The position numbers and the translations under genes are program-made. Under the pieces are notes generated by a model. That model saw nothing but the letters and a program-made list of their open reading frames with translations, was not told where the DNA came from and did no database searches. From NCBI GenBank assembly GCA_963775425.1, contig CAVZJB010000009.1:80616-144615 (forward strand): a DNA stretch of 64,000 bases, written 5' to 3'. This document shows, piece by piece, positions 27,513 through 51,891 of the stretch. Numbering within the stretch: the stretch's first letter is position 1; every line of letters starts with the position of its first letter. The stretch is from an uncultured delta proteobacterium. Its GTDB lineage: Bacteria > Myxococcota > UBA727 > VGSZ01.

Positions 27513-28766
27513 TCAATCCATGGGGTTGTCGTCGTCGTTTTCGCCGAGGCGAAACACGGGCTCCTTGCCGAGCGGCCACAAAAACGCAGCCGCCGGCCGC
27601 TCCGACAAGGGCGCGGGGAGCGCGCGCTCGATGACGCGCACGTCGCGCGCGCCGGCGACGACGGCGAGCTGCCCCGCGTGCGTCTCCGCGGCGAGGCGCA
27701 CGGCGTTCAAGCGATTGGCGTAGGGCTCGAAGATGTGGAACTCGAGCGCGATGGAGTCGCTGTCGCGGAACTGCCACAGGCCGATGCAGCGCCCCTCCTC
27801 GATGATGATCGAGGTGGTGTTGCCGGCGGGGTCGTAGACCCAGGGAGCGAAGCGCGGCTCGACGACGCGGGTGCGGTCGCGCCAGCCGAGTGGGTACGCG
27901 TCCCACAACGGCAGGAACAGGATGCGCTCGGGTTGCCCGCCGCCCTTGCGCGTCTGGTCGGCGACCTCCCGCAGAGTGACGAGGCCCTCGCCGAGCCCGT
28001 CGACGGGGAACTTCACGACCTCGCGGCCGAGCACCTCGAGCACGCGGCGCACGTCGGCCATGGGCAGGCCCGTCCACCAGGCGGCGTCCTCGAGGCGGGC
28101 GGGGCCGTACGTGCGCAGATAGCGGCGAACGACCTCGACGCGGGCCTGCTCCACCTGCTCCGGGATGAGCGACGCGCCCTCGAGCCACTGCTCGGCGAGC
28201 GCGTAGTTGAACTGGTTGCCCTTCCAGCCCTTGGACGTGGTGCGGACGAGCACGCCGATGTCGCAGAGCTTGCGCAGCAGCAGGCGCTCGATGTCGACGC
28301 CGGGGCGGCGCTCCTTGCCGGGGTACAAAAGCGCGATGACCTCGCTCTCCTGCCGCGGCATGGTGAACGCCTCGGAGCGCAGCTTCTCGGCGAAGCGCTG
28401 AAGCTGGAGCTCGTCGATGCCCTCGGAGCGCAGGCGGGACATGCCCGTCGTCGACAGCGTGTCGTACAGCGCGCGGAAGTAGAGCGGGTAGTCCTCGCTC
28501 GCGAGCAGGAACAGCGACCCGCGAAACGCCGTGGCGCGCACCAACGACCAATCGTTGACGAGCGCCTCCTCGAGGTCCCCGAGGGTGAGCGTCGGGCGCC
28601 GGGCCATCAGCGAGAGGTACGCGATGGGGTTCGGGCCGTAGATGCCGGGTCTTCTGTGGATGGCTTCCACCAGGGTCTCGCCGTCCCCGAACGCGTTCAG
28701 CGTGGTGTGGTGGTAGCGCTGCAGTTGCTTGAGGGGCGTGGCCTCGAAGGTGCCCTTGGCCGGCAT
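27513..28766 (-). CDS. YcaQ/AlkZ-family winged-helix protein, a DNA glycosylase-like enzyme for interstrand-crosslink repair
   Basis: VRRYLRTYGPARLEDAAWWTGL plus the length and overall pattern match YcaQ (DUF1006). Confidence 0.65.
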   Translation of the reverse strand: MPAKGTFEATPLKQLQRYHHTTLNAFGDGETLVEAIHRRPGIYGPNPIAYLSLMARRPTLTLGDLEEALVNDWSLVRATAFRGSLFLLASEDYPLYFRALYDTLSTTGMSRLRSEGIDELQLQRFAEKLRSEAFTMPRQESEVIALLYPGKERRPGVDIERLLLRKLCDIGVLVRTTSKGWKGNQFNYALAEQWLEGASLIPEQVEQARVEVVRRYLRTYGPARLEDAAWWTGLPMADVRRVLEVLGREVVKFPVDGLGEGLVTLREVADQTRKGGGQPERILFLPLWDAYPLGWRDRTRVVEPRFAPWVYDPAGNTTSIIIEEGRCIGLWQFRDSDSIALEFHIFEPYANRLNAVRLAAETHAGQLAVVAGARDVRVIERALPAPLSERPAAAFLWPLGKEPVFRLGENDDDNPMD

Positions 28767-28872: not shown

Positions 28873-29040
28873 TCAGGGGGCGGCGGTGGGGACGGGCGTG
28901 TCGGGCGTCTTGCGCTCGGCAAACCAGATGGCGATGCCGAGGGCGACCGCGGAGATCACGAGGACCACGACCAGGTGGCGGCCCACCCCGGTGGGCCGTG
29001 GCAGCCGCGTGCCGAACATGGAGCGCTCGGCGGTCACCAT
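28873..29040 (-). CDS. Possible small membrane protein of 55 aa
   Basis: It has high GC3 and a single hydrophobic helix (LVVVLVISAVALGIAIWF). Confidence 0.3.
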   Translation of the reverse strand: MVTAERSMFGTRLPRPTGVGRHLVVVLVISAVALGIAIWFAERKTPDTPVPTAAP

Positions 29041-29225
29041 CTGGTCGGGGTCATGTGGCTCGGGCACGCCCCGAGGCTACCGCATCCGGAGCCACCCGAA
29101 GCAAGCGCGGGGGCGCCGCGCCCGGGAGCCCCGGTTCGTGGCGGACGGGCGGTCAAGCCCCAAAAGGAGCGCGGCGGAAGCTGCCGCCGGAGTCGTCCGC
29201 CGCTCCGGGCGCGCGGAGCGCGCGG

Positions 29226-29290
29226 CTGTTCGTGAGCGTCAGCGAACAAAAAAGGGAGCCGTCGCCGGCGTTGAAACAACGCCGACGACG
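29226..29290 (-). terminator. Candidate intrinsic terminator downstream of sctT
   Basis: The minus strand reads cgtcgtcggcgttg-ttt-caacgccggcgacg, a 13-bp stem, then ggctcccTTTTTTgtt. Confidence 0.35.
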
Positions 29291-29468
29291 ACCGAAAGCG
29301 GCGACCTCTCCCGTCGACGCCCGGACACAGCGTTTCCCCCCTCGGCTCGCCTCGCGGCGGGCCGTCACCTGATGCCCCCCGAGCTCCGCTGTGTCCGACC
29401 CCGACGCTGAACCTAACGAGGACGCGGCCGCGCGCAGGGCTCGCGTGTGGATCGATCACGCGTGCGCC

Positions 29469-30290
29469 TCAGCTGAGGAGCTTGATGATGTCGTCGACGT
29501 GGCCCAGCATGATCACCGAGTTCTTCAGCATGGTCTGGATGAACAGGTCGATGCAGAGGAAGAACACGATGCAGCCGCCGATGACCTTGGCGGGCATGGC
29601 CATGAAGTACGCGTTGATCTGCGGGGCCACGCGGTTGATGAGGCCGAAGGACGTCTCGAGCGTCAGCGTGACGATGCCGATGGGCATGGCGAGGAGCACC
29701 GCGATCTCGAGGATCTCGGCGGTGAGCCGCGCGTTGTACTCGACGAAGGCGGCGTAGCCGGCGTGGAAGTGCGGGAAGTCGTTGATGGGGACCGCGACGA
29801 AGCTCTCGAACAGCGACGCCAGGAACGGGTGGTGCAGATCCAGCGCCAGGAACAGGGCGAGCAGCAACTGGTACTGCAGCGTGCCGAACGCCGACGAGCG
29901 CTCCTCGATCTCGGGCACCTGCAACTGGATCTGGTTGGCGCCGCGCAGGATGTCGATGAGCTGGCCGGCGATCTCCACGGTGTAGAACACCTTGGACGCG
30001 ACGAAGCCGATGACGAGGCCGACGAAGGTCTCCTTCATCATCATGAGCGTGAACCCGATGGGCGTGATGGGCAGCCCGTGCTCCGGGCTGACGTTGGCGA
30101 GCACCGTGGGCCACAGCAGGATGGTGAGCGTGACGCCGACGCCCATCTTCACCTCGACGGGCGCGTTCTTGCCGCCGAGGAACGGCACGAGGACGACCAT
30201 GGCCATGATCCGCGCCATGATCAGCGCGAACACGACGATGGTCTTCGTCATGTCGAGCTGCTGCGCGAGTGCAGCCATGAAGTTCTGCAC
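29469..30290 (-). CDS. sctT: Type III secretion export apparatus protein SctT (FliR/YscT family)
   Basis: At 273 aa it is a polytopic membrane protein with the FliR/SctT pattern (…FLASLFESFVAVPINDF…MPIGIVTLTLETSFGLINRVAPQINAYFMAMP…). Confidence 0.8.
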   Translation of the reverse strand: MQNFMAALAQQLDMTKTIVVFALIMARIMAMVVLVPFLGGKNAPVEVKMGVGVTLTILLWPTVLANVSPEHGLPITPIGFTLMMMKETFVGLVIGFVASKVFYTVEIAGQLIDILRGANQIQLQVPEIEERSSAFGTLQYQLLLALFLALDLHHPFLASLFESFVAVPINDFPHFHAGYAAFVEYNARLTAEILEIAVLLAMPIGIVTLTLETSFGLINRVAPQINAYFMAMPAKVIGGCIVFFLCIDLFIQTMLKNSVIMLGHVDDIIKLLS

Positions 30291-30298
30291 GGCCGCTC

Positions 30299-30571
30299 CT
30301 AGTGGATCACGTCGGGGATGCTCCCGAGGCAGAGCGTCGCGAAGCGAAGCATCGTGGCCCCGAGCCAGCCGCCGGTGGCGGCGAGCACCGCGAAGACGGC
30401 GATCATCTTCGGGACGAAGGAGAGCGTCTGCTCCTGGATCTGCGTCGTCGCGGAGAACACCGCGACCAGCACGCCGATGAGCAGGCTCAACAAGATGGGG
30501 GGCATCGACACCACGATGGTGATGAGGATGGCCTCGTTCGTGATTTGAACGATGAAGTCCTGGACGGTCAT
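30299..30571 (-). CDS. sctS: Type III secretion export apparatus protein SctS (FliQ/YscS family)
   Basis: The 90-aa product MTVQDFIVQITNEAILITIVVSMPPILLSLLIGVLVAVFSATTQIQEQTLSFVPKMIAV is the typical FliQ hairpin. Confidence 0.8.
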   Translation of the reverse strand: MTVQDFIVQITNEAILITIVVSMPPILLSLLIGVLVAVFSATTQIQEQTLSFVPKMIAVFAVLAATGGWLGATMLRFATLCLGSIPDVIH

Positions 30572-31437
30572 TGGTACCCCAAGACGAGGCCGCGGGTGAT
30601 GAGGTACCACCCGTCTACGAGGACGAAGAGCAATATCTTGAACGGCAGCGAGATGGTTGTCGGCGACAGCATCTGCATGCCGAGCGCCATCAATATGTTC
30701 GACACCACCATGTCGATCACCAGGAACGGCACGAAGATGATGAAGCCTATCTGGAAGGCCTTGGTGAGCTCGCTGATGACGAACGCGGGCGTGATGATCA
30801 CGAGGTCGTCGGGCTGAAGCGACGCGCGGTCCTCCTCGGCGCGCAGCCGATAGGCGACGCGATAGAGCATCTGGCGGTTCTTCTCATTGCTGTTTTTGAG
30901 GAGGAACGCCTTGATGGGCTCCTTGGCCTGCTTGAGCGCGTCGACGATGATGTCGACGTTCTCCTTCTGCAGGAGGTCGCCGCCGCGTCTTATCTCGATG
31001 AGGCGGTCGACGCGGTTGTAGATCTGCAGACCCACGGGCTGCATCACGTACGCGGTGAGGATGATGGCCATGCCCGTGATGACGGTGGTGGGCGGCGCCT
31101 GCTGCGTGCCGATGGCCTGGCGGGTGATGGACAGGACCACCGCGATCTTGACGAAGCTCGTCACCATCATCCCGACGAAGGGGATGAGGGCGAGGCCCGC
31201 CATGGCCGTCATGAGGATGAGCGGGCGGTTGGAGATGGAGTCGTTGCCGAGGAGGTCGACGCCGCCGACGGTGGCGCCGTGGGCGATGCCGCGACCCTTG
31301 GCCAGGGCGACGCACGGCGCGAGCGACACGACGAAGAAGACGAACGTGGCCCAGCCCACCCCGCGGGCGAAGCGCAGGGTGCGCGGCTCGTCCTTGTGGT
31401 GTCCGAAGCAGGAGCGGAGGGCTTCGCGGAGCTTCAT
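30568..31437 (-). CDS. sctR: Type III secretion export apparatus protein SctR (FliP/YscR family)
   Basis: It has the conserved FliP core (PLILMTAMAGLALIPFVGMMVTSFVKIAVVLSITRQAIGTQQAPP…FVPFLVIDMVVSNILMALGMQMLSP). Confidence 0.85.
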   Translation of the reverse strand: MKLREALRSCFGHHKDEPRTLRFARGVGWATFVFFVVSLAPCVALAKGRGIAHGATVGGVDLLGNDSISNRPLILMTAMAGLALIPFVGMMVTSFVKIAVVLSITRQAIGTQQAPPTTVITGMAIILTAYVMQPVGLQIYNRVDRLIEIRRGGDLLQKENVDIIVDALKQAKEPIKAFLLKNSNEKNRQMLYRVAYRLRAEEDRASLQPDDLVIITPAFVISELTKAFQIGFIIFVPFLVIDMVVSNILMALGMQMLSPTTISLPFKILLFVLVDGWYLITRGLVLGYQ

Positions 31438-32153
31438 GCGGTGGCCTTCTCGTCGTCGTTCGTCTTCTTGGCGTCGCGGCGCCTGAGGGCGTCCATGAAG
31501 GACGGCGGCGGCGCCGCCGCGGCCTTGGTCTCCACGTCCTTCAGGAGCGTGACGCCGCCCTCGCCGGCGGCGAGCAGCATCTGCTTGCCGTCGACCTCGA
31601 CGAGGAAGAGCGAGCGCTTGGCGTCGAGGCCGACGCGCTCGACCACCTTGACCCGCCTGCCGAGGTTCTGGCGCTCGACGAGCTTGCCGAGCCCCTTGGA
31701 CAGCGTGAGGTACACGAGCCCGAGGACGATGCAGAGCATCAAGATGGTCTTCAAGAGCGGCCCGACGAGGTCGCCGAGCCCCGACTGCGGCGCCGGCAGC
31801 GGCTTGAGCGCGTCCGGATCCGGCGGGGGCGCCGGGGGCACCTGCGGCGCGGCGTGTGCCGCCGGGTTTGCCGCTGCGTCCCCGTCGTCCGCGCGCGCGG
31901 CGGCGACGTCCGCGCCGGTCGCGGGCGCCGCGTCGTCGTCGCCGGCGGGGTCGTCGCCGACGCCCGGCGGCGGCAGAACGAGCTTCACGGCGTCGTCGGC
32001 CGTGGCGTCGTCGTCGGCGGCGTGCGCGGCGGCGGTGCCGCCGAACGGCGCGCTGTCGCCGGCGTTGTCGGCGAGCGCGGGGCCGGCGAGCGCGAGCCCG
32101 ACGACGACGAGCATGGGCGACGGGAGGGAGCCACGCTGGAGCTTGCTGATCAC
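31434..32153 (-). CDS. FliO-like export-gate accessory protein with an N-terminal signal peptide and an Ala/Asp-rich spacer
   Basis: The TM and C-terminal region (LLKTILMLCIVLGLVYLTLSKGLGKLVERQ…RSLFLVEVDGKQMLLAAGEGGVTLL) follow the FliO pattern. Its stop overlaps the sctR start. Confidence 0.5.
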   Translation of the reverse strand: MISKLQRGSLPSPMLVVVGLALAGPALADNAGDSAPFGGTAAAHAADDDATADDAVKLVLPPPGVGDDPAGDDDAAPATGADVAAARADDGDAAANPAAHAAPQVPPAPPPDPDALKPLPAPQSGLGDLVGPLLKTILMLCIVLGLVYLTLSKGLGKLVERQNLGRRVKVVERVGLDAKRSLFLVEVDGKQMLLAAGEGGVTLLKDVETKAAAAPPPSFMDALRRRDAKKTNDDEKATA

Positions 32154-32263
32154 GGCCGCAGCTTAGCGCGCCGCGCTCCAGGCGTGGCGAGCGCCCCCGT
32201 CCGCGCGTGGGGCCGGGCCTACATCCGCGCCGGACCCCGGGCGGACGCCACGCGGGTGCCGGG

Positions 32264-33727
32264 TCATTTGACGAGGGAGAGGATCCGGACGCCCAGCTCG
32301 CCGTCGATCTCGACGAGCTCGCCCTTGCCGACGCGCTTGCCGTCGACGACGAGGTCCACGGGCTCGCCGGGGGCGCGCGACAGCTCGATGACCTGGCCCG
32401 CGCGCAGTTGGACGACGTCGGCGGCGGAGACCATCACGCGGCCGAGCTCGACGACCATCGCCACGGTGATGTCGTCGAGGAGGCCCGCGGCCTCGGGCGA
32501 GGGCTCGTCCTCGGGCTCCTCTTCCCCGTCGGAGTGCTCGGCCCCCGGCTCGTCGTCGACCGCGGTGCCACCCGGGAGCGGCGCGCCCCCGCCGGCGTCG
32601 TCGATGGGGGCGGCGACGCGGTCGGCGGCCTCCCGGCGCAGCCGGGACCCGAAGGCGTCGGCGTCGACGAGACCCGCAGCGGACAGCCGCTTGGCGTTTT
32701 CTTCCATCTCCCCGCCTTCTACCTCGCCGAAGCCCTCGTGGAACAGATGCGCCTTTGCGCGCGGCTCGCCCGCGGGCGAGATGGCCTCGATCTGGACCTC
32801 GTAGCGCCCGCTGTCGCCGACGACGAGCGCGCCGGAGATGACGCCGCGGTGCCCGTCGCCGAGCCGGCACTGCACGCGGCCGCTCAGCGTTTGCGGCTGG
32901 TCCTCGTCCTCGGGCGGCACGATCGTCACTTCGCTCTCCTCGACGAGGATGATGTCGTCGATCTCGAGGGACTCCACGTCCGCCATCTGCAGACCGATGC
33001 GGCCTACCTCGACCACGAGCGGCGCCGTCAACAGCCGCACCACGTCGATGCGCTCGTCGAGCCGGCGGAGCCAGCGCGACAAGGCCGGGCCCTCCGCGGG
33101 GACGTCGGGCGAAAACGCGTCGCGCACGAAGCTCTCCGGCAAGTAGACGCGGCAGAAGCCCACCTTGACGTCGAAGAACAGCCGGAAGCTCAGGCACAGC
33201 AGGGGCGCGTCGACCGGGAAGCGCTCCGCGAGCGACGCCATGGTCCCGTGGACCCCCTCGAGCTTCAACGCCACGTCCTTGTCGGCGGCCCCCTCCTGCA
33301 GGAGCTGCAGCACGCGCAACAGCACGAAGGAGAACACGCCGTCCTCGATCTCCGACAGCGGCCTTTGTCCGTCGGCGTCCTCGGCGTTCCCCCCGAGGAG
33401 CTTGTCGATGGCCTGCTGCGCCACGGTGAGATCCACCTCGAGGAGCGCCTTCTCGGTGCGCGGCGGCAGCCCGATGACGGCGGCGCACGTGGGCTCCGCG
33501 AGGACCTGCGCGAGCTCTCCGTCGCCGAGCGCGCGCACGCCCTCGAACCACAGCTCGACGTCCGCGTGGACGAGCGGCCCGAGCATGTCCTTGAGCCAAT
33601 CCTTGAAGTCGCTCTCGAACGCCGTCTGCGGTAGGTGACACAACAGCGCGTTTTGCACCTGCACCTGCCGGCGGCTGATGCGGGGGAGCGTTCCCTGCAG
33701 CTTGAACTTGCGGAGCTTCCTCGCCAT
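32264..33727 (-). CDS. sctQ: Type III secretion cytoplasmic-ring protein SctQ, with a SpoA (FliN/YscQ) C-terminal domain
   Basis: The C-terminal ITVAMVVELGRVMVSAADVVQLRAGQVIELSRAPGEPVDLVVDGKRVGKGELVEIDGELGVRIL is a SpoA domain. Confidence 0.7.
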   Translation of the reverse strand: MARKLRKFKLQGTLPRISRRQVQVQNALLCHLPQTAFESDFKDWLKDMLGPLVHADVELWFEGVRALGDGELAQVLAEPTCAAVIGLPPRTEKALLEVDLTVAQQAIDKLLGGNAEDADGQRPLSEIEDGVFSFVLLRVLQLLQEGAADKDVALKLEGVHGTMASLAERFPVDAPLLCLSFRLFFDVKVGFCRVYLPESFVRDAFSPDVPAEGPALSRWLRRLDERIDVVRLLTAPLVVEVGRIGLQMADVESLEIDDIILVEESEVTIVPPEDEDQPQTLSGRVQCRLGDGHRGVISGALVVGDSGRYEVQIEAISPAGEPRAKAHLFHEGFGEVEGGEMEENAKRLSAAGLVDADAFGSRLRREAADRVAAPIDDAGGGAPLPGGTAVDDEPGAEHSDGEEEPEDEPSPEAAGLLDDITVAMVVELGRVMVSAADVVQLRAGQVIELSRAPGEPVDLVVDGKRVGKGELVEIDGELGVRILSLVK

Positions 33728-34803
33728 CAGTCCTCGAAGACCTCGCGGATATCTTCCTTGATCTCGTCCACGGCTTCCTTTTTCTTGCCGGGGAAAAGCA
33801 GGCTGAGCCCGATCCCGGCCCCCAACAATCCACCCACGACGACGAGTGACAACGGGGTCGGCACGTGGGTCGGCGCCTCGGGCCACACCCAGGCGAGGAG
33901 CGGCAGGCACATCTTGGCCCCGATGAAGCCGAGCACCAAGCCGAGCGCCGGCTTGAGGAACCGGAGCCCCCACAGCGCGCCCGACAGCAGGAAGAACAGC
34001 GACCGCAGGCCCAGGATGGCGAAGATGTTCGAGGTGTAGACGATGAACGGGTCCAGGGAGATGCCGAACACGGCGGGGATGGAGTCGAGCGCGAAGACCA
34101 CGTCGCTGAGCTCGACCGACACGAGGACGAGCAGGAGCGGCGTGGCCTTCCTGACGCCCTCTTTGAGCGTGAAGAAGCGGTGGCCGTCGTAGCTGTCGGT
34201 GACGCGGACGAAGCGGCGGGCGAGCTTGACGACGCGGTTGTCCTTGACGTCGCCTTCGTCGTCGCCGCCGCGCTCGACGATGAGCTTGATGCCGCTGTAC
34301 AGGAGGAACGCGCCGAAGACGTAGATGAGCGCGTGCACCGTGGACAGAAGCGCGGTGCCGCCGATGATGAACACGCCGCGCAGGACGACGGCGCCGAAGA
34401 TGCCCCAGAACAGCACGCGGTGCTGGTAGGCGTCGGGGACCTTGAAGGCGTGAAACAGGAGCAAGAAGACGAAGAGGTTGTCGACGGACAGCGAGTACTC
34501 GATGACGTAGGCCGAGAAGAACTCGAGGCCGCTCTCACGGTCCGACAGCACGAGGACGGCGACGCCGAACCCGCAGCCGAGCGTCACCCACACGATGGTC
34601 CACGCGAGCGCCACGCGCTTCTTCATCGGCGCGTCGCTGCGGCTCCCGATCCACAGGTCCACCGCCAGCACCACGACGACGATGGCCGTGAACGCGATCC
34701 ACAGCGCCGGGGTGCCGATGGAGTGCACCCGGGGGAAGTACCCGCTGAGGGGACGGGTGCCAAGCAAGACCCGCGGCGCAGCGATGCGCGGGCGCGCGCC
34801 CAC
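33727..34803 (-). CDS. TerC family integral membrane protein. The start is uncertain; a GTG near 34724 is possible.
   Basis: It has the TerC signature YSLSVDNLFVF plus repeated TM topology. Its stop overlaps the sctQ start (TGATG). Confidence 0.75.
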   Translation of the reverse strand: MGARPRIAAPRVLLGTRPLSGYFPRVHSIGTPALWIAFTAIVVVVLAVDLWIGSRSDAPMKKRVALAWTIVWVTLGCGFGVAVLVLSDRESGLEFFSAYVIEYSLSVDNLFVFLLLFHAFKVPDAYQHRVLFWGIFGAVVLRGVFIIGGTALLSTVHALIYVFGAFLLYSGIKLIVERGGDDEGDVKDNRVVKLARRFVRVTDSYDGHRFFTLKEGVRKATPLLLVLVSVELSDVVFALDSIPAVFGISLDPFIVYTSNIFAILGLRSLFFLLSGALWGLRFLKPALGLVLGFIGAKMCLPLLAWVWPEAPTHVPTPLSLVVVGGLLGAGIGLSLLFPGKKKEAVDEIKEDIREVFED

Positions 34804-34809
34804 GCTTCG

Positions 34810-35715
34810 TCAGCGGGTCTCGAGGCGGGCCAGCGACAGGCCCTTCTTGTCGAGGCGGCGCATGAGGTCTCCCTTGGAAGCCTCGATGAGCCGCTTGCTG
34901 TTCTGATCGAGGTTCTCGAAGCGCAGCGAGACCTTGCCGTCCTCGGCGGACACGCGCATGCGCGCGCCCTTGAGCGGGCCGTCCTTCAGCTCGATCTGGA
35001 ATTCCTTGAGGCCCTTGTCGTTGACGGCGAGGTGCACGGCGCTGACGAGCTTGTCGAGGAGCTCGGCGGGGATCTGCTTGACCTCGTGCGCCGGCGCCGC
35101 CCCCTGCGCCGCCTGCAACTGAGCGGCCTTGACGGCGCCGAGCGCGCCGGCGCCCTCGCGGCCGCGCCCGTCGGACTCGCCCTTGCCGTCGGCGTCGATG
35201 GCGGCGTTGGGCAATGCGGCGTTGCGAGCGTCGAGCTGCACCGCCTCCGCGTCCATCTCCTTGGCCGTCTCCTTCTTGTCGAGGTCGACCTTGCGATCGT
35301 CGCGCTCGACGCGGTCGTGCTCGACGCCCTGCTGGCGCCGCACGAAGCGGCCCGTGTCCGCCGACTGCGTCGCCGTGGCGTTCTTGTTGAGCACGCCCTG
35401 GAAGCCCTTGGCCTGCTGCATCGCGCGCGTCTGCTTCTGGATGCCGCTCCTGGCGAGGCGCGCGGCCTGGGCCTCGCTGTGGGCCTCCTTGGCGACGTGC
35501 TCGCCCTCCTGCTCGGCGTGGTGCTCCTCGTGCTGCGCCTTGAGCGCCTTGTCCTTCGTCGTCTCGGCGGTGCGCTGCCCGGCGCGCACCAGCTTGCCGA
35601 ACGCCGCACGGTTCTTCTCGGTGGACTTGGCGTCGCGGGCGTTCTTGTCGAGCTTCTTCTGGAGCCGCTCAGCCTCCGCCCTTTTGTGGGCGTCTTCTTC
35701 GACACGCGTGGACAT
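34810..35715 (-). CDS. sctP: Hook/needle-length control protein, FliK/SctP-like with a Flg_hook C-terminal domain
   Basis: The N-terminus is a charged coiled-coil. The C-terminus (…LLDKLVSAVHLAVNDKGLKEFQIELKDGPLKGARMRVSAEDGKVSLRFENLDQNSKRLIEAS…) matches the FliK C-terminal domain. Confidence 0.6.
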   Translation of the reverse strand: MSTRVEEDAHKRAEAERLQKKLDKNARDAKSTEKNRAAFGKLVRAGQRTAETTKDKALKAQHEEHHAEQEGEHVAKEAHSEAQAARLARSGIQKQTRAMQQAKGFQGVLNKNATATQSADTGRFVRRQQGVEHDRVERDDRKVDLDKKETAKEMDAEAVQLDARNAALPNAAIDADGKGESDGRGREGAGALGAVKAAQLQAAQGAAPAHEVKQIPAELLDKLVSAVHLAVNDKGLKEFQIELKDGPLKGARMRVSAEDGKVSLRFENLDQNSKRLIEASKGDLMRRLDKKGLSLARLETR

Positions 35716-35802
35716 GAAAAACCCCGGTGAAAAGCATCGCGGAGTGTATCGGCGCCGCCGCCGACGGGGGTGCGACCCCGTCATGACGCGGCGCGCCGTC
35801 CG

Positions 35803-36054
35803 TCAGCGACGCGCGGCGGCGAGCTCCTCGCGGAGCTTTTCGATCTCCTCGCGGAGCTTCTCGTTTTCGCGCTGGACCTCGTCGGCCGTGGGCGGCGGCG
35901 GGTCCTCCTTGGCGGCGGCCCCGTCGCGCGGCCCCAGGCGCTTTTTCATGTGCGCGCCGGCGACCTTGGCGATCTCCACGCCGACGCCCGCCAAAAGCGC
36001 CTTCCCCAGCGTGCGCCCGAGCTCCGCGATGACCTTTCCCACGGAGGCGTTCAT
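35803..36054 (-). CDS. Small coiled-coil protein of 83 aa
   Basis: High GC3. Its start overlaps the sctO stop. The C-terminus reads ENEKLREEIEKLREELAAARR. Confidence 0.4.
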   Translation of the reverse strand: MNASVGKVIAELGRTLGKALLAGVGVEIAKVAGAHMKKRLGPRDGAAAKEDPPPPTADEVQRENEKLREEIEKLREELAAARR

Positions 36055-36563
36055 GCGTCACCGAGCTCCTCGAGGAGCTTCTGGAAGTACTGGGCCTGCG
36101 CGATGTCCTCGGCGGCCATCTCTTCCTTCAGCATGCGCTCGCGCTTCACCTGCTTGAGCCACTTTTCCTTGTGCTTCTCGAGGGCTTTGAAGTCCTGCGT
36201 ACATTTCACGACAACTTCCATGGCTTCGGCGGCGATGCGCTCGGCTTCCTGAACGCGCTCTTGCTGCCTGTCGATGTCCACCTGGTAGGCCTCTTCCTGC
36301 TGCTTGAGTCGCTCGATGTGCCGGTCGTTTTGCTGGATCTGGCTCACGGTGTACTCGCCCATGCGGGTGCGCTCGGCGTACTCGGCCTTCTTGTTCTGGC
36401 GCATCTGCACCATCTCTCTGAGCTTCTGGCGCATCTCGTCGAGCTTGCGCTCCTCCTCGACGACCTTCCTGCGCTTCTCCGCGTAGGCCTCCTCGGCCTC
36501 CTTCTTCTTCTTCTCCCGCATCTCGTAGAGGACCTGCAGGCGGTACGCCGGCGACTTGGCCAT
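36051..36563 (-). CDS. sctO: SctO/FliJ-like stalk protein, all coiled-coil, 170 aa
   Basis: Its size, all-helical Lys/Glu/Arg-rich composition and position (downstream of the ATPase, upstream of sctP) match SctO/FliJ. Confidence 0.5.
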   Translation of the reverse strand: MAKSPAYRLQVLYEMREKKKKEAEEAYAEKRRKVVEEERKLDEMRQKLREMVQMRQNKKAEYAERTRMGEYTVSQIQQNDRHIERLKQQEEAYQVDIDRQQERVQEAERIAAEAMEVVVKCTQDFKALEKHKEKWLKQVKRERMLKEEMAAEDIAQAQYFQKLLEELGDA

Positions 36564-36637
36564 ATGGGATGAGATTACCGTCTGCTCGCGGCGGCGTCAT
36601 TGCACAGGCCGCTTCCGGGCGTGGTACGTGCTGCTCT

Positions 36638-38417
36638 GTGTCGCTCCCGGGCACGGCGCTCTTCTTCGCCCTCCTCGCGGTCGTCGTCGCGGGCGTGGCA
36701 GGCGCCCTGCGGCGCCTGCAGGCCGGCCGGCCTTCCACCGCGGCCGCGGCGGCGCTGGCCGTCCTGGCGGTGGGCCCGGACCTGCTCGGGCGCCCCTTTC
36801 ACGACGTCGGCGCCGGCCTGTGTCTCACTTCAGTCCTGTGCGCGCCGGGCGTCCTCTTTTTGCGCCGCCCCGCCCCGGCGCGGACGGGCGACCCGCGCGC
36901 GCCGGGCCCTCCGCTCGACGCGCTCGCCGCCGCCCTCGCGCTCCTCCTGTTCGCGGGCATCGCCTGGGTGACGCTCACGACGTTCCTCTGGGACGAGCGC
37001 AGCACGCACTTCGGGCTCGCCTCCGTCGTCGCCAGGGGCGGGTTGCCGGTGTTTCACCCCGAGTTCCCCGGCGCGGCGTTTTCGTACCACGCGGGCTTCG
37101 ACGTCATCGCCGGCGCCGTCCGGCGCTTCACGCGGCTGCCCATCGAGCGCTGCATCGACGTCGTCGGCCTCGCCGCCGCGGCGTCGCTGCTGTGGACGCT
37201 CCTCGACATCGGCCGCGACCTCGGCGGACGCGCCGGCGCGCGCCTCGCCCCCGCGCTCGCGCTGCTCGCCTACGGCCCGCTCTCCCTGTGCACCGGCGTG
37301 GTCTACGGCCTCGATCCCGCGTGCAGCGCCCTGTTCCCCGCGTCGTGGCAGCACACGGCCTGGCTGCCGGCGCCGGTGATTCTCGAATTTCTTCCAACAC
37401 CCGCAGGCCCTCGGCATGGCGGTCGTCCTGCCCGCGCTCGTCCTCGGCAGCGACGACGACCAAAAGCGCTTCGGCGCCGGCGTCGCCCTGCTCGCGCTGG
37501 CGTCACAGGCGCACGTGGTGCTCTTCGGGCTCGCCGGCCTCGGCCTCGCCGCCGTCGTCGTCGCGCGCACCGTGCGCACGCGGGCCGTGGCCGCCGGCGC
37601 CGTCCGCGGCGCCGCGCTCCTGGGCGCGCTCGCGTTCGCGCTCCTCGCCGGCGGCTTCTTCCATACGCCGGAGGCGCCCGCGCGCTTCCTGTGGGTCGGG
37701 CACTTCCGCGCCGCGTTCCACGCCGGCGTCCTCGGGAGCATCGCGCTCAACCTGGTGCTGTTCGCGCCCGCCCTCGCCACGCTGCCGTTCGCGGTCTTTC
37801 GCGCGCGAGCCGGCGGGCTGCGCCTCGCGCTCGTCGTCGCCGCCGCCGCCGGGTTCATCGCCGGCAACGTCGTCAGCTACGAGCGGAGCTGGGACATCGT
37901 GAAGCTCTTCGGGGCCGCCGCCTTCTGCGCCAACCTGCTCCTCGCCGACGTGCTGGCGGCCGCCGTCGCGCGCGTGCGGCCCGCCGTCGTCGCCTGCGTC
38001 GCCGCCGCCTGCGCCGTCGCCGGCGGCGTGTGGCTCGTGCGCTTCGGCCCGCTCAACGGCGCCATCGCCCCGCGCTACACCGAGCGCGCGCCCGCGCCGC
38101 TCGCGCGCGACCTCGACGCGCGCTTCGGCGACGTCGTCGGCCTCGCGCCCGTCCTCACCGACGCGCCGCAGATCCAGGAGCTCGGCTTCGCCCTCGTCGG
38201 GTTCGACTGGCGCGACGCCAGCGTCGGCTTCCTCGTCGACCGCGACCGCCGCGACGCCCTCACCAAGCTGCGAGACCGCGCGCTCACGTCGCTGTCGCTC
38301 GCCGACGTGCGCGCCACGGGAGCGCGCTTCGTGCTCGTGCGCGCCGGGCGCGCCGTGGACCCCGCGCTCGAGCGCGTCGGCGACGTCGACGACCACGCGC
38401 TCTACCGCGTGCCCTGA
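36638..38417 (+). CDS. Polytopic integral membrane protein with a large C-terminal soluble domain, possibly GT-C-like, and an apparent +1 frameshift near 37375–37395
   Basis: GC3 support covers two adjacent frames (36638→~37385 and ~37380→38417). The switch lies in an unusually AT-rich stretch, gtgattctcgaatttcttccaacac. Confidence 0.45.
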
Positions 38418-38421
38418 TTCT

Positions 38422-39855
38422 TCAGTCCTGGGCGTCCGCGAACATCTCCACCAGCGCCTGCACCGTGTCCTCGAACGCGGAGGCCTCCGTGGTGCCCTGC
38501 TTGAGGAACGTCTCGACCTCTTCGATCTTGTCGATGGCGTAGTCGACCTGCGGATCGGTGCCGTACTGGTACGCGCCGAGGAGGATGAGGTCGCGGTTCT
38601 TCTCGTAGGTGGCCATCACCTGCCGCATCTTGGACGCGGCCTTTTTGTGCTCGTCGGCGGCGATGCCGGTCATCACGCGGGACAGCGACGGCAGCACGTC
38701 GATGGCGGGCCAGTGGTTTCGCGCGCCGAGCTCGCGGTTGAGGATGACGTGGCCGTCGAGGATGCCGCGCACCTCGTCGGCGATGGGCTCCTCCATGTCG
38801 CCGCCTTGCACGAGGATCGTGTACATCGCGGTGATGGAGCCGATGTGGTTGTTGCCGGTGCGCTCCATGAGCTTCGGGATGAGCGCGAACACGCTCGGCG
38901 GGTAGCCCTGGCGCGCAGGCGGCTCGCCGAGCGCGAGGCCGATCTCGCGCTGCGCGCGGGCGAAGCGGGTGGAGCTGTCCATCATGAACAGGACGTCCTT
39001 GCCCTCGTCGCGGAACCACTCCGCCACCGCCGTGGCGACGAAGCAACACTTGAGGCGCACGAGCGAGGGCTGGTCCGACGTGGCGCACACGACGACGGAG
39101 CGCTTGAGGCCCTCTTCGCCGAGGGAGTCGTGGATGAACTCGAGCACCTCGCGACCGCGCTCGCCGACCATGCAGACCACGACGATCTCGGCGGAGGTCT
39201 GCCGCGCGATCTGTCCCATCAACGTCGACTTGCCGACGCCGGAGCCCGCGAACAGGCCGACGCGCTGGCCGCGGCCGACGGTGAGCAGGCCGTCCCACGC
39301 GCGCACGCCGAAGGAGATGACGCGATCGACGGGTTGGCGCGTGTAGGGATCGGGGCACTCGCGCTCGACGGCCCAGTCCTCGAGGCCCTCGATCTCCTCG
39401 ATGGAGCCGAGGCCGTCGATGGGCTCGCCGGTGCCGGAGAGCGTTCGGCCGAGCAGGCCGTAGCCGCACTTGATCTGGAACGGCTTGCCGCTCGGGATGA
39501 CCTCGCTCTCGGGGCCGAGCCCGGCGTTCTTGGGATTGCCGAGCGGCATCAAGAAGACGGCGCCGTCCTTGAAGCCGACGACCTCGGTCTTGAGCGCGCC
39601 GACGTCTTCCTTGGGCGACGTCACGTAGCACATCTCGCCGATGCGCACGCCCGGCACCGCAGCCTTGATGATGAGGCCGGTGACCTCGGTGACGCGGCCG
39701 CGGACGCGGTACGGCTTGGCCTCGCGGATCTCCTCGATGGCCCGACGCAGCTCGATGACCTTGCCCTCGGGGACGCCGTCGACGTGGGGCGCGGGCTCGC
39801 CGACGAGGTTCTCCTCAAGGGCGTCGAAGTCCGGCTTCTTGCGCGTGGTGGTCAT
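38422..39855 (-). CDS. sctN: Type III secretion ATPase SctN (FliI/YscN family)
   Basis: It has Walker A (GLFAGSGVGKSTL), Walker B (VLFMMDSSTRFA) and the F1/T3SS ATPase fold. It is 477 aa. Confidence 0.9.
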   Translation of the reverse strand: MTTTRKKPDFDALEENLVGEPAPHVDGVPEGKVIELRRAIEEIREAKPYRVRGRVTEVTGLIIKAAVPGVRIGEMCYVTSPKEDVGALKTEVVGFKDGAVFLMPLGNPKNAGLGPESEVIPSGKPFQIKCGYGLLGRTLSGTGEPIDGLGSIEEIEGLEDWAVERECPDPYTRQPVDRVISFGVRAWDGLLTVGRGQRVGLFAGSGVGKSTLMGQIARQTSAEIVVVCMVGERGREVLEFIHDSLGEEGLKRSVVVCATSDQPSLVRLKCCFVATAVAEWFRDEGKDVLFMMDSSTRFARAQREIGLALGEPPARQGYPPSVFALIPKLMERTGNNHIGSITAMYTILVQGGDMEEPIADEVRGILDGHVILNRELGARNHWPAIDVLPSLSRVMTGIAADEHKKAASKMRQVMATYEKNRDLILLGAYQYGTDPQVDYAIDKIEEVETFLKQGTTEASAFEDTVQALVEMFADAQD

Positions 39856-42026
39856 TGGCCCTTGAGGATCGCCCTCACCTTGGAGGCGTCCTCCGCGTCG
39901 GGCTTGAGCTCGAGGTACTTCCGGTAGTGCTTGCGCGCGAGATCGTTCTTCTTGAGCTTGGCGTAGGCCACGCCGAGCGTGCGGTGCACGTTGGCGTTGT
40001 TGCCGTTGACGTAGGGCGCGAGCTCGCTCACGGCGGCGCCGGGATCGCCCGCGAAGATCTTCTGGGTGGCGCTGCTCAGCGCCTTGTTGATCTCGGCCTG
40101 CTTGTTGTGGTGCGTGACGCGGGGCTCGTCGGTCTTGCGCTTGTGCTTGGGCTCCGCTCGCACGGCGTGCCCGCCGCTGTCGCCCGCGGCGTCGTCGGCG
40201 GCGGCGAGGGCGGCGTCGTCGTCCGCGCCCGCGGCGGCGCCGTCGTCATGCGCGTCGCCCGGGGCGGCGTCGTCGTGCGCGGCGGCGTCGTCTGCGCCCG
40301 CGGCGGCGGCGGCGGCGGCGGGCGCGTCGTCCCCGGTGGGGCCGACGTCGGGCTTGGCGCCGCTGCCGTCCGGGACGGGCGCCGTGTCGGGCGTCGTCGG
40401 CGTCGGTGAGGCCGCGGCGGTGGGTGGGGGCGGCGTGGGCTTGTCGTCGCCGCCGCTCGTGGCGACGAGCACGGCGATCACCGCGAGCAGCGCGATGACG
40501 ACGACGACGCCGATGACGATGATGTTCGGGCGGCCGCTCGGCTGCGAGAAGCCCTCGAACGGCGCCGCCGACACCGCGTCCGCCTGCTTCTTGCGAACGG
40601 GGTTGGTGACCCCGGTGCCGGCGTCCTGCTCGAAGTCGTCGCCGGCGGTGTCGGCGATGCGGGCGCGCTCGATCTCCTCGGGGGAGACGGCGAAGCGCTC
40701 GCCGATGGCGACGAAGCGAAGGCGGACGCGGCCGAGCTCGACGACGTCGCCGGGCTTCAACACGGCCTGCTCGACCTCCTCGTTGTTGACGAGGACGCCG
40801 TTGGCGCTCTTGAGATCGAGGATGCGCACGCGATCGCCCTCGCGCACCACCTTGGCGTGGTTTCGCGAGACCGACTTGTGCTCGATGGTGATGTCGTTGT
40901 CCTCGGTGCGCCCGAGCACCGCCTCCGCCGCACGCAGCGAGAAGGTGCTGCCCGCGAAGATGGTGTTGAGCACCACCAGGCGCGGGTACACCACGTCCTC
41001 GGCGCCGGGCGCGGCGCGCATGGCCTCGGTCTGCTCCTCGAGGGCGGTGCGTGCGTCGTTGGGACGCGCCGGCGCCGCCGGCGTCCCCGGCGCGCGCCCG
41101 TTGTCCGGCGACGGCGTGGCCGGCCGCGCGTCGGGGGCGCGGTCCTGCGCCCGCGGCTCGGGCTTGGTCTCGAGCACCCCGACGTGGCCGCCGATCTCGG
41201 GCACCGCCGCCGTCGGCGATCCCTCCGCCTTGTGCGCCACCGCCTTGTGCGCCGCCGGCGGCGGCGCGGGCGGCATGGTGATGGGCGGCGGCGACGTCGC
41301 CTGGCGCACCGTGGGCTCGAGCTCGGCCTCGCGCTGTCGCGACGGCAGCGCCGCGGCGTCCACAGTGGGCGCCTCCATGGCTTCGAGCATCTCCATGGTG
41401 ACGCGCTCGGTGTCGCCGCCGTCGGGATCGAAGCCGCTCCGCGCGTTGCTGCCGTTTTCCGGCGCCGGCTGCGGCGCGGGCTGCGCCCCCGCGACCGCGG
41501 GCGACGGCACCGTGCGCTCGTCGCTGAGCGGGTGATCTTCCTGGGTGGCGAGCCCGGGCACCGACAGCGCGGGTCCGCCCTGCGGAGGCTCCCAACGCTG
41601 CGTGTCGCCGGCGAACTCGTCGTCGTCGGGGCCGTGGGGAGCGGTGTCGCGGTGCAGCGGCTGCGTGGCCTGGGCGCCCTCGGCCGCGCCGTTGTGCGGG
41701 TGTTGCGGCGCGGTCACGCCGAGGGTGTCCTGCGCGTGAAGCGCGAGGTGGTAGTCGCCGATCTGGATGGTGTCGCCCTCGTGGACGTGCACCCGGCCGT
41801 CGATGCGATCCCCGTTGAGCTTGATGCCGTTGAAGCTCTTCAGGTCCTCGATCAGGACGTGGCCGTTCTCCTTCGAGAGCTTGGCGTGGTTGCGGGAGAC
41901 GTTCCGCTCCGTGAGCCGGATGGTGTTCCCTTCTTTACGCCCGATGGTGATGACGTCGCGCGTGAACGGCACGACGATCTGCTTGCCCGCATCGTCTTCG
42001 ATGATCAGCTTCCAGGTCGAAGGCAT
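39852..42026 (-). CDS. Membrane protein with two FHA domains, one TM helix, a Pro/Ala/Asp-rich periplasmic region and a C-terminal TPR-like motif
   Basis: The two FHA cores are (ITIGRKEGNTIRLTERNVSRNHAKL…NGIKLNG) and (FSLRAAEAVLGRTEDNDITIEHKSVSRNHAKV…NGVLVNN). The TM is IIVIGVVVVIALLAVIAVLV. Its stop overlaps the sctN start (ATGA). Confidence 0.7.
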   Translation of the reverse strand: MPSTWKLIIEDDAGKQIVVPFTRDVITIGRKEGNTIRLTERNVSRNHAKLSKENGHVLIEDLKSFNGIKLNGDRIDGRVHVHEGDTIQIGDYHLALHAQDTLGVTAPQHPHNGAAEGAQATQPLHRDTAPHGPDDDEFAGDTQRWEPPQGGPALSVPGLATQEDHPLSDERTVPSPAVAGAQPAPQPAPENGSNARSGFDPDGGDTERVTMEMLEAMEAPTVDAAALPSRQREAELEPTVRQATSPPPITMPPAPPPAAHKAVAHKAEGSPTAAVPEIGGHVGVLETKPEPRAQDRAPDARPATPSPDNGRAPGTPAAPARPNDARTALEEQTEAMRAAPGAEDVVYPRLVVLNTIFAGSTFSLRAAEAVLGRTEDNDITIEHKSVSRNHAKVVREGDRVRILDLKSANGVLVNNEEVEQAVLKPGDVVELGRVRLRFVAIGERFAVSPEEIERARIADTAGDDFEQDAGTGVTNPVRKKQADAVSAAPFEGFSQPSGRPNIIVIGVVVVIALLAVIAVLVATSGGDDKPTPPPPTAAASPTPTTPDTAPVPDGSGAKPDVGPTGDDAPAAAAAAAGADDAAAHDDAAPGDAHDDGAAAGADDDAALAAADDAAGDSGGHAVRAEPKHKRKTDEPRVTHHNKQAEINKALSSATQKIFAGDPGAAVSELAPYVNGNNANVHRTLGVAYAKLKKNDLARKHYRKYLELKPDAEDASKVRAILKGQ

Positions 42027-42110
42027 CCGCGAGTGCGCACTCCTGGCCGGCATCATACGTCGACGAACAGGCCGGCCGCCAAGCCGTGACCGGCGCTGTG
42101 TTTGGAGACC

Positions 42111-43373
42111 CTATCGCACACCGCGGGCGATGTTCTTGCCCGCCGGCCACCGCCGGATGACGTCCAGGGCGGCGGCCACCTGCGGATCCCGCTTGACCCG
42201 CTCCGCCCCGTGGATGCCCGGCGGCAGATCCGCGGCCGGACGCACCGGGACGTCCGGCTCGATGCCGACGTCCTGGATGGAGCGCCCGCTCGGGGTGAAG
42301 TAGCGGGCGATGGTGAGCTTCAGCCCGGCGCCGTCGTCGAGCCCGAACAGCGTCTGCACCGATCCCTTGCCGAAGGTGCGGGTGCCGACGACCACGGCGC
42401 GCTTGTGGTCCTGGAGCGCCCCGGCGACGATCTCGCTCGCCGACGCGGTCCCGTCGTTCACGAGGAGCACCAGCGGGTAGTCCGGCTCCGTCCCCTCCGG
42501 CCGCGCCACCTCCCGCTCCGTGTTCCTCGGGTTCCTGCCCTGGGTGGTGACGATCAGGCCGTCTTTGAGGAAGCGGTCCGCCACGCGCACGCCCTCGTCG
42601 AGGAGGCCCCCGGGGTCGTCGCGCAGGTCGAGCACCACGCCCGCCGGCTGCTGTTTGCCGAGCGCCCGCGCCCGCTTGCGCGCCCCCGCCAGCGCGTGCG
42701 CCAGCTCCTGGTCGGTGCGCTCCTGGAACGCGCGGATGCGGACGTAGGCGATGTCGTTGCCGAGGTCGTCGTCGTCGACGGAGGGCACGCGCACCTGCCG
42801 GCGCACGAGCGGGATGTCCCGCGCATGATCCCAGCCCTTGCGCGCCACAGTGAGGACCACGCGGGTGCCGGGGACGCCGCGCATGAGCTTGACGCTGGCC
42901 TCGAGCGGCTGGCCGCGCATGCTCTCGCCGTCGACGGCGAGGATCTTGTCACCGGGCTTCAAGCCCGCGTGCGCTCCCGGGCTGTCCGCGTGCACGACCT
43001 CCACCTGGATGACGTCGCCGCCGGGCTCTTTGTAGGGCCCCACCTCGATGCCGAGCCCGCCGAACTCGCCCGCGGTGTCCTCGCGGAGCTTCTCGTACTC
43101 GGCGGGGCGCATGAAGGTCGTGTGGGGGTCGAGGCCGGAGAGCATGCCCGTGATGGCGTCGTAGACCAGCTCGTCCGGGTCGAGCTCGTCCACGTAGTTC
43201 TGCTGCACGTACGTGAGCACCTGCGAAAACACCCGCAGCTTCTTGTACGTGCCGTCGACGCCGCCGGCGTACGCGACGCCTGCGCCGCCGGCGAGGACGA
43301 CGCCGCACAACAGTCCTGCGACGAACGCAGCGAGGGAAGGCGTGCGGAACAGCGGGGGACGGCGCATGGACAC
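42111..43373 (-). CDS. Carboxyl-terminal processing protease, S41 family, with a PDZ domain
   Basis: It has the PDZ segment (GLKPGDKILAVDG), the S41 catalytic region (…LLVNDGTASASEIVAGALQD…GTRTFGKGSVQ) and an N-terminal signal/anchor. Confidence 0.85.
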   Translation of the reverse strand: MSMRRPPLFRTPSLAAFVAGLLCGVVLAGGAGVAYAGGVDGTYKKLRVFSQVLTYVQQNYVDELDPDELVYDAITGMLSGLDPHTTFMRPAEYEKLREDTAGEFGGLGIEVGPYKEPGGDVIQVEVVHADSPGAHAGLKPGDKILAVDGESMRGQPLEASVKLMRGVPGTRVVLTVARKGWDHARDIPLVRRQVRVPSVDDDDLGNDIAYVRIRAFQERTDQELAHALAGARKRARALGKQQPAGVVLDLRDDPGGLLDEGVRVADRFLKDGLIVTTQGRNPRNTEREVARPEGTEPDYPLVLLVNDGTASASEIVAGALQDHKRAVVVGTRTFGKGSVQTLFGLDDGAGLKLTIARYFTPSGRSIQDVGIEPDVPVRPAADLPPGIHGAERVKRDPQVAAALDVIRRWPAGKNIARGVR

Positions 43374-47839: not shown

Positions 47840-48085
47840 AGAAGTGACCGCATAGCCGCCGTGGAGGGCGGTCGCGCCCGTGACAAGGGCGTGCGCAACA
47901 ACGAGCTCGACCTGACCGCGCCGCGGCCGTGATCAACCTGCAAGAGATCGCCAAGCTCCGCCGCGCGGCGTCGCAGAGCCCGCGCCGGGTCCCGTCGTCG
48001 GTGCGCACGAGAGCCCTGCACATCGCCACGAAGTCGCCACAGCGACACCGCTCCAAATGCCGACAACGTCGTCACCGCGCCGCGC

Positions 48086-48601: not shown

Positions 48602-48658
48602 CACCCGACGTTGCCAGGCGCGCGGCCTTCGTGCACCCTCCGGACCTCGGAGGTCTCC

Positions 48659-51240: not shown

Positions 51241-51344
51241 GTCGTCGCCGTCCCTGATCGCCCCGCGCGTTCGACGAGGACCGGCGCCGCTGACCCCGCG
51301 ACGGCGCGCTTGCATTCGTCCGCGAGATGCCTATCGTCCGGCCC

Positions 51345-51752: not shown

Positions 51753-51823
51753 CGACGCAGGCTCCGGCGACGCCGGAGCGACGCTGGCGATCAAGCGCGG
51801 CCGCTCCCTCCGGTCGCTGATCA

Positions 51824-51891
51824 GCGGCGGGAGCGATCACGCGGCGGGAGCGATCACGCGGCGGGAGCGCTCACGCGGCGGGAGCGCTCGC
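51824..51891. repeat. 17-bp tandem repeat ×4 (gcggcgggagcgatcac) overlapping the stop codon of the NCS1 gene
   Basis: Two copies are identical and two have 1–2 mismatches. The NCS1 stop codon (TGA, minus strand) lies inside the third copy. The last 6 codons of the gene are themselves repeat sequence. Confidence 0.85.

Follow-up and report, generated by a model that had tools for sequence, protein, structure and literature searches.

The stretch under study, hereafter the window, comprises 64,000 nt of a 394-kb contig (CAVZJB010000009.1, positions 80,616 to 144,615) from an uncultured delta proteobacterium placed within the Myxococcota (assembly GCA_963775425.1). On its minus strand it carries part of a type III secretion system (T3SS) operon, into which terC, a gene of the TerC membrane protein family, is embedded directly upstream of sctQ. 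We observe that terC is kept at this place in most related loci, that the TerC proteins linked to such operons are monophyletic, and that they retain the residues which are essential for metal export in a studied relative. Some loci of the same T3SS family have no terC beside sctQ, i.e., it is an accessory gene. While the evidence for the association of terC with the T3SS operon is strong, that for its function is circumstantial. Tentatively, and with a confidence that falls a little short of calling it probable, we read terC as a metal exporter that came into the service of the T3SS and would supply metal outside the inner membrane by analogy to MeeF and MeeY at the SecYEG translocon.

Identity of terC and its position among related loci

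The maximal open reading frame (ORF) of terC spans positions 33727..34803 of the minus strand, i.e., 358 codons from the farthest GTG. It matches the Pfam family TerC (PF03741; E=3.7e-49, 167.3 bits, cut-off 27.8) and the NCBIfam model of the TerC/Alx subfamily (TIGR03718; 370.6 bits, cut-off 246.4), while the YkoY and YjbE subfamily models stay below their own cut-offs (YkoY 65.7 bits, cut-off 138.5). The signature YSLSVDNLFVF is present. With both the profiles and the motif in agreement, we confirm what an earlier note on this DNA had read from the sequence, namely a TerC-family gene between a SctP-like gene and sctQ, where only the SctP assignment is weak (see below). TerC-family models are the only profile matches of the protein, and no homology to core Sct or Fli proteins was found. 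A sequence comparison with the Protein Data Bank gave no relative, and the best Foldseek match (E=0.07, template modelling score below 0.32) is not significant. The GC content at third codon positions (GC3) is 0.95 and equals that of the neighbouring genes, from which we conclude that terC is a native coding sequence. Recent horizontal transfer and an assembly artefact were considered and are ruled out, since GC3 fits the neighbours and the arrangement recurs across independent assemblies.

Translation of terC probably starts at the GTG at 34728 and yields a protein of 333 amino acids (aa), because the conservation among homologues begins only at SIGTPALW and E. coli Alx also begins there (MHSIGTPALW in the window, MNTVGTPLLW in Alx). 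The spacer behind the stop of the SctP-like gene would therefore measure about 79 nt instead of 6 nt. Over its full length, the protein is 45% identical to E. coli Alx.

For Alx, export of Mn2+ requires the acidic residues E86 and D92 in transmembrane helix (TM) 3 as well as E213, D216 and D222 in TM6 (PMC10197570). All five align to acidic residues of the terC protein. E102 and D108, the counterparts of E86 and D92, are part of the TM3 motif E-Y-S-L-S-V-D-N (34477..34500, minus strand), and E231, D234 and D240, the counterparts of E213, D216 and D222, of the TM6 motif E-L-S-D-V-V-F-A-L-D (34084..34113, minus strand). Within the alignment of relatives (A2), D234 and D240 are invariant and E231 is nearly so. 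Furthermore, the conservation of E102, D108, D234 and D240 reaches at least 90% within the T3SS-linked TerC clade described below and likewise among the TerCs outside it. That is, the transport site offers no feature that separates the terC protein from metal-exporting TerCs. Nothing in the sequence speaks against a working metal exporter, and Mn2+ export activity is predicted.

An AlphaFold2 model of the protein (based on 84 sequences; predicted local distance difference test score, pLDDT, 85.8; predicted template modelling score 0.84) contains nine long TM helices. The loop that connects TM5 to TM6 is structured, and a further helix at the C-terminus is modelled with less confidence. The charges of the loops, as read from the sequence, fit the positive-inside rule. 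Taken together with the predicted topology of Alx (PMC10197570), this suggests an N-out/C-in orientation.

To sample related loci without bias towards those that contain terC, we seeded a scan of species-representative genomes with a SctQ alignment. It yielded 10 loci with SctQ proteins 51-61% identical to that of the window, all from metagenome-assembled genomes (MAGs) of uncultured Myxococcota or 'Deltaproteobacteria'; no cultured Myxococcus sequence was among the matches of the SctQ search. For 9 of these 10 loci, terC is found directly upstream of sctQ, and when all SctQ-seeded samples are pooled this holds for 10/13 related loci. The same terC-sctQ junction is seen in L001, L002, L003/L004, the place of P0042, L096, L100 and L102. 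Altogether, the terC-sctQ arrangement occurs at 17 independent places, and one further place (L095) keeps terC with sctO-sctP: there, two genes separate sctO from terC, of which the one next to terC is SctP-like, and no sctQ lies downstream. We also observe 15 further pairs of TerC and SctQ clusters located on contigs of exactly equal size, none of which involves TerC matches ranked below P0073. The synteny check in related loci that the earlier note had suggested thus finds terC kept at its position across a deep clade.

The gene order around terC takes three forms, i.e., sctN-sctO-sctP-terC-sctQ-fliO-sctRST, a block terC-sctQ-fliO-sctRST in which terC leads and which it opens in at least 5 loci, and sctO-...-sctP-terC alone. 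We had considered this variety as strong evidence for selection and dropped the argument, since a single break beside terC always leaves a T3SS gene as neighbour.

The gene is missing from some related loci. In L010, a divergent pair of aminotransferase and cytidylate kinase genes directly precedes sctQ (9835-10001). Because the same pair flanks terC in L001-L004, L010 points to a clean deletion of terC. L097 and L098 encode SctQ proteins of the same family (46% and 44% identity, respectively) and have no terC beside sctQ, and the distant locus L099 (30% identity) shows the order fliH-sctN-sctO-sctP-sctQ with nothing between sctP and sctQ. Given these four loci, terC is an accessory gene of one T3SS subclade and not part of the core. 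This agrees with the earlier note, which held that TerC is not a component of known T3SS or flagellar export apparatuses: our literature searches found no such description, and the protein has neither homology to core components nor a place beside every related sctQ.

We also investigated whether the linked TerCs form a group of their own. A neighbour-joining tree was built from 205 TerC sequences. It places all 30 sequences of known T3SS context into one clade of 76 (bootstrap 197/200), from which the unlinked loci are entirely absent. As a negative control, we used a TerC-seeded metagenome scan, which provides 80 outgroup TerC loci among the matches listed (43-53% identity). None of these 80 listed loci has T3SS genes nearby; for 36, the downstream sequence extends over 1.5 kb or more. 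Together with P0089, this amounts to 0/81 TerC loci outside the clade with T3SS neighbours (80 of them among the matches listed).

Three predictions were drawn from the trees and then checked, and all held. P0077, which lies within the clade at 53% identity, is located in sctO-sctP-terC-sctQ-fliO-sctRST, whereas P0089, equally 53% identical but not a member of the clade, is found among genes of sulfur and glycogen metabolism. The SctQ protein P0218, placed on a deep and poorly sampled branch (46% identity), has a terC 36 nt upstream of its gene. On the SctQ tree, the two lineages without terC branch off at the base and L010 lies within the carriers; the simplest history of these sequences would thus be one insertion of terC followed by one loss. 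In accordance with co-inheritance since the insertion, the pairwise distances of TerC and SctQ are correlated (r=0.81, Mantel test 0/5000).

Within the window, the junction of terC and sctQ reads TGATG (33725..33729, minus strand), i.e., the stop of terC (TGA, 33729-33727) and the start of sctQ (ATG, 33727-33725) have one base in common, just as the earlier note had stated. This overlap of 1 nt is present in 7/17 loci (the window, L001, L002, L007, L011, L012 and L013). Among the other loci, the two genes are separated by 3-12 nt in six, by 36 nt in one (L102) and by 66-83 nt in three, such that the gap does not exceed 12 nt in 13/17 loci. Since the overlap is restricted to 7 loci and three gaps reach 66-83 nt, what is conserved is the membership in the operon and not a strict translational coupling.

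The transcription unit that holds terC likely starts with sctO; the coding signal directly upstream of sctO is on the opposite strand. Scanning 29000-42500 for terminator-like sites on the minus strand, we find four overlapping sites that represent two hairpins (~29260-29293 and 29171-29189), all of them downstream of sctT, and none between sctO and sctT. The strongest site (29257..29293, minus strand) follows just after sctT and consists of a hairpin of 17 pairs and a T-run. A sigma-70 scan of the minus strand found no internal promoter upstream of terC. From the tight coupling and co-expression proposed in the earlier note, the conserved operon membership and the lack of a terminator-like site from sctO to sctT therefore remain, while the 1-nt overlap does not extend to most loci.

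Matches to the sigma-54 consensus are fewer in the operon of the window than in shuffled sequence, and none lies in the spacer between sctP and terC. Sigma-54 machinery is encoded beside some related loci, i.e., an FHA and sigma-54 activator protein (L098, 11611-13218), a large sigma-54 activator (L100, 1-2340) and rpoN (L102, 282-1949), which hints at sigma-54 control of related T3SS operons. For the window as well as for 7 linked loci, there was no match to the yybP-ykoY riboswitch or to any other cis-regulatory Rfam family. As 8 unlinked TerC loci likewise have no yybP-ykoY riboswitch, its lack does not discriminate between linked and unlinked genes.

Proposed role and its alternatives

The conserved operon position suggests an export machine with its own metal-delivery partner, as it is known for Sec in Bacillus. 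The terC product would be an Alx-type exporter of divalent metal, most likely Mn2+. A single insertion between sctP and sctQ in the ancestor of an uncultured Myxococcota clade would have brought the gene into the operon, where it would have been inherited since then within the unit sctO-sctP-terC-sctQ-fliO-sctRST. Being inherited, and presumably transcribed, as part of this unit, TerC would be made together with the export apparatus and might associate with it physically. It would export divalent metal beside the T3SS export gate, to the outer face of the inner membrane, where the metal would serve the proteins which the T3SS-like machine exports or assembles, and it might affect secretion. 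If the system is needle-less, the proteins it exports would reach the periplasm in an unfolded state and would have to be metalated there. Myxobacterial T3SS-like systems are described as lacking secretin and needle, with a substrate route that is unknown (PMC3459982; PMC10433427).

We also compared the 76 clade members with the outgroup TerCs to identify features of the linked proteins. Behind TM9, the main subclade shows the tail motif FPGKKP-x(3-5)-AA-x-E[VI]K-x-D[IVL]-x-E, for which the copy of the window is the predicted cytoplasmic C-terminal tail PGKKKEAVDEIKEDIREVFED (33730..33789, minus strand; clade motif FPGKKP..AA.E[VI]K.D[IVL].E). The tail is predicted to form a helix (residues 316-332 of the 333-aa form, low pLDDT) on the cytoplasmic side. 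The motif is restricted to the main subclade, i.e., the outgroup TerCs as well as the deepest T3SS-linked branches do not have it. In addition, we considered a position as clade-specific if its conservation within the clade reaches 85% or more and the outgroup shares it to no more than 15%. This identifies 13 positions. The predicted cytoplasmic face, to which 28% of the protein belongs, contains 8 of them (binomial p=0.011). Such a pattern is expected for a new cytoplasmic interaction surface, but it is only suggestive since the clade represents just one lineage and loops are more variable than helices. The clade-specific surface and the C-terminal helix are thus candidate docking sites for T3SS components. 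A stronger version of the proposal would make the TerC of this clade a physical subunit of a needle-less T3SS, which docks by its cytoplasmic loops and C-terminal helix to the sorting platform or the export gate and metalates emerging substrates with Mn2+ or another divalent cation, released where they exit into the periplasm; we regard this version as rather unlikely.

Several observations weigh against a recruited metal exporter. The loci L010, L097 and L098 belong to the same T3SS family and have no adjacent terC, such that any role of the gene must be dispensable or replaceable. All support comes from genomic context and sequence, obtained from uncultured organisms, and a gene order with overlapping stop and start can persist neutrally within an operon. 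If the cell has no second housekeeping TerC or MntP, this copy may be its general Mn exporter. Furthermore, canonical T3SS substrates bypass the periplasm, and the metalation model therefore requires a needle-less system. With regard to docking, the p-value of 0.011 for the cytoplasmic face does not account for the higher variability of loops, and the tail motif cannot be needed for T3SS linkage since the deepest linked branches are without it.

The main rival to recruitment is that terC is a neutral passenger: a housekeeping Mn2+ exporter would have landed once in the T3SS operon and would be kept there by inheritance and by the overlap with sctQ, without any function for the T3SS. We consider this possible, if on the doubtful side. 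The protein is an ordinary Alx by identity (45%), transport residues, N-terminus and topology, and related T3SS loci exist without it. The correlation of TerC and SctQ distances is expected for any two co-inherited genes, and each of the observed arrangements is explained by one breakpoint beside terC. No second TerC was seen within the 64-kb window, hence this might be the only copy. On the other hand, terC is kept across a SctQ divergence of up to 56% p-distance with one detected loss in about 20 sampled lineages, the linked TerCs form a distinct and strongly supported clade with conserved cytoplasmic features of its own, and no outgroup TerC locus among the matches listed is linked to a T3SS. 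A gene for Mn detoxification should also respond to Mn, yet no yybP-ykoY riboswitch precedes it (which equally holds for the 8 unlinked loci).

Two further readings keep a T3SS function for terC and change what it would act on. TerC might aid the insertion, folding or metalation of SctR/S/T, FliO and the SctD-like protein and not of the substrates, which we deem quite improbable. Its gene does stand immediately upstream of sctQ, fliO and the membrane export-gate block and is the first gene there in at least 5 loci, and an analogy is given by FliO, which chaperones FliP. For Arabidopsis, AtTerC interacts with ALB3 and is needed to insert thylakoid membrane proteins (summarised in PMC10550928). 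Loci of the same family, however, assemble the same gene set without terC, and nothing in the sequence separates such help in assembly from a metalation of substrates. We also know of no metal requirement for SctRST or FliO. Even less probable, and in our view highly so, is an ion-coupling accessory, i.e., a TerC that energises or gates secretion in that it alters, locally at the export gate, the pH or the gradient of protons or cations. T3SS export is driven by the proton-motive force, which would fit such a role. The activity of Alx is indeed pH-dependent, but the same study saw no obvious accompanying H+ transport (PMC10197570), the transport site is the same as in metal-exporting TerCs, and the idea is without precedent. 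The proton-motive accessory envisaged by the earlier note thus gains no specific support here. Its more general suggestion of a functional role fits the clade-wide operon position, whereas the role itself is derived from context and the gene is accessory, given the loci without it.

The surrounding operon

The window holds a partial T3SS composed of sctD-like, sctN, sctO, sctP-like, sctQ, fliO-like, sctR, sctS and sctT genes, all on the minus strand. The SctD-like protein (39852..42056) has two FHA/YscD-cytoplasmic domains and a C-terminal TPR region (Pfam FHA, Yop-YscD_cpl, TPR). Its long middle region is of low complexity, and its stop overlaps the start of sctN. The ATPase gene sctN (38422..39855; Pfam ATP-synt_ab, T3SS_ATPase_C) and the YscO-like sctO (36051..36563; E=9.7e-19) are parted by a coding sequence on the opposite strand. 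Within this plus-strand region (36569-38417), the coding signal (GC3 >0.9) shifts its frame from 36600-37300 to 37375-38400, and it resembles a multi-TM protein of some 615 aa, either frameshifted or mis-assembled, that has no Pfam or NCBIfam match. For comparison, sctN and sctO are only about 400 nt apart in L005, which is the closest syntenic locus.

The SctP/HpaP-like gene (34810..35784) is a weak assignment, since its matches to HpaP (E=1.5e-4; 22.3 bits, cut-off 23.8) and to Flg_hook, the C-terminal domain of FliK (E=0.007), do not reach the respective cut-offs. Its placement after sctO fits SctP, and the equivalent gene in the distant locus L099 matches Flg_hook. Between sctO and the SctP-like gene, a spacer of about 270-340 nt is found in the window (35715-36051, minus strand) as well as in L005 (7536-7819), and L102 has two small ORFs (58 and 74 aa) in the position of sctP.

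Downstream of terC, sctQ (32264..33727) combines a FliM-like N-terminal with a FliN/SpoA C-terminal domain (Pfam FliM, FliMN_C) and reaches 101.4 bits for the SctQ model TIGR02551 (cut-off 100.8). It is followed by the fliO-like gene (31434..32153; Pfam FliO, E=3.4e-11), by sctR of the FliP family (30568..31437; E=2.5e-67), by sctS (maximal ORF 30299..30610; Pfam Bac_export_3, E=1.8e-25; its homologues are called at 90 aa) and by sctT of the FliR family as the last gene of the unit (29469..30290; Pfam Bac_export_1, E=6.2e-52). A FliO-like gene, which is normally flagellar, is thus conserved between sctQ and sctR of a non-flagellar T3SS-like operon, both in the window and in all related loci. 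Among the ORFs scanned in the window, we found no sctU, sctV, sctJ, sctL or sctC, and neither secretin nor needle or translocon genes.

Genes for zinc peptidases are found within a few kb of some related T3SS loci. In L095, an M10 peptidase is encoded between sctN and sctO (2580-4247), M23 peptidases are found near L001 (4660-5709) and the place of P0042, and M15/VanY peptidases near L100 (4085-4756) and L102 (2006-2908). These could be metal-dependent cargo or a coincidence. Outside the T3SS operon, the window encodes an AlkZ-like DNA glycosylase beyond the terminator-like hairpin (27513-28766, minus strand) as well as a cluster that resembles pyrimidine catabolism (47933-56625), i.e., an amidohydrolase, a cytosine/uracil-type permease and PreT/PreA-like dihydropyrimidine dehydrogenase subunits.

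Comparison with known systems

The cargo of needle-less myxobacterial T3SS-like systems and its destination are an open question (PMC3459982, PMC10433427), for which an operon-borne metal exporter provides a testable lead. The presence of a metal exporter in the core operon points to a demand for divalent metal outside the cytoplasm, on the part of substrates or components. If the docking version of the proposal is true, the clade TerC would give the first case of a type III export apparatus with a metal-delivery partner dedicated to it, and these ancestral-looking systems would export metalloenzymes into the periplasm. If terC is instead a neutral passenger, it would provide a clean example of long-term hitch-hiking within an operon.

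By gene content, the window system resembles the 'Myxo' non-flagellar T3SS (NF-T3SS) of Myxococcales (Abby and Rocha 2012, PMC3459982) and the needle-less T3SS* of M. xanthus (mxan_2434-2464; PMC12075869, PMC10433427). It shares SctN/Q/R/S/T and a SctD of FHA type with them, i.e., the export apparatus and ATPase genes of a Myxo-type NF-T3SS are present, and no secretin or needle gene was seen among the ORFs scanned in the 64 kb. In contrast to the M. xanthus T3SS*, the SctQ family of the window comprises uncultured MAGs only. TerC is not mentioned in these three publications (PMC3459982, PMC12075869, PMC10433427), and our full-text literature searches found no published description of TerC together with T3SS, flagella or Myxococcus.

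The closest known counterpart of the protein itself is E. coli Alx (b3088), with which it shares the N-terminus, the predicted 9-TM N-out/C-in topology and the five essential acidic residues (PMC10197570). However, alx is monocistronic behind a yybP-ykoY Mn/pH riboswitch, whereas terC of the window is part of a T3SS operon and has no such riboswitch. Its clade-specific cytoplasmic C-terminal helix motif is a further difference, since this motif is missing from outgroup TerCs.

Two systems are similar by description. The TerC-family gene PSPTO_2691 of P. syringae DC3000 belongs to the HrpL regulon (about 50-fold by quantitative reverse-transcription PCR; PMC4149516) and is thus also associated with a T3SS. 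There, the association is a co-regulation via a hrp promoter at a separate locus and concerns a canonical needle-bearing injectisome, while here it is operon membership. Together, both cases suggest that a dependence on TerC should be sought in classical injectisomes. Arabidopsis AtTerC is likewise paired with a membrane insertion/translocation machine, namely the YidC-type ALB3 (PMC10550928), but within a eukaryotic thylakoid system and with a different partner.

The model for the proposed role is given by MeeF (YceF) and MeeY (YkoY) of B. subtilis, which co-purify with SecY as well as SecDF and are required if exoenzymes are to be metalated (He, Sachla and Helmann 2023, PMC10550928). Like terC, they belong to the TerC family (PF03741) and are tied to a machine which exports unfolded proteins across the cytoplasmic membrane, and the proposed logic is the same, i.e., Mn2+ would be delivered on the outer side for exported proteins. 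The differences concern the partner (the T3SS export apparatus here, the SecYEG holotranslocon there), the kind of link (membership in the same operon, known from genes alone, versus co-purification of proteins that are encoded elsewhere) and the protein itself, which is of the 9-TM Alx subfamily whereas MeeF and MeeY have 7 TM helices. The novelty claimed by the earlier note hence holds for the operon, since our searches found no published TerC-T3SS operon, and is reduced by the precedents at the Sec translocon (PMC10550928) and in the HrpL regulon (PMC4149516). If our proposal is true, the partnership of TerC and Sec (PMC10550928) would extend to a second, unrelated export machine, which would suggest a translocon with a TerC metal feeder as a general design. 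As far as the sequences tell, we would thus deal with a known kind of partnership, that of TerC and a protein-export machine, in which the new element is that this machine is a T3SS.

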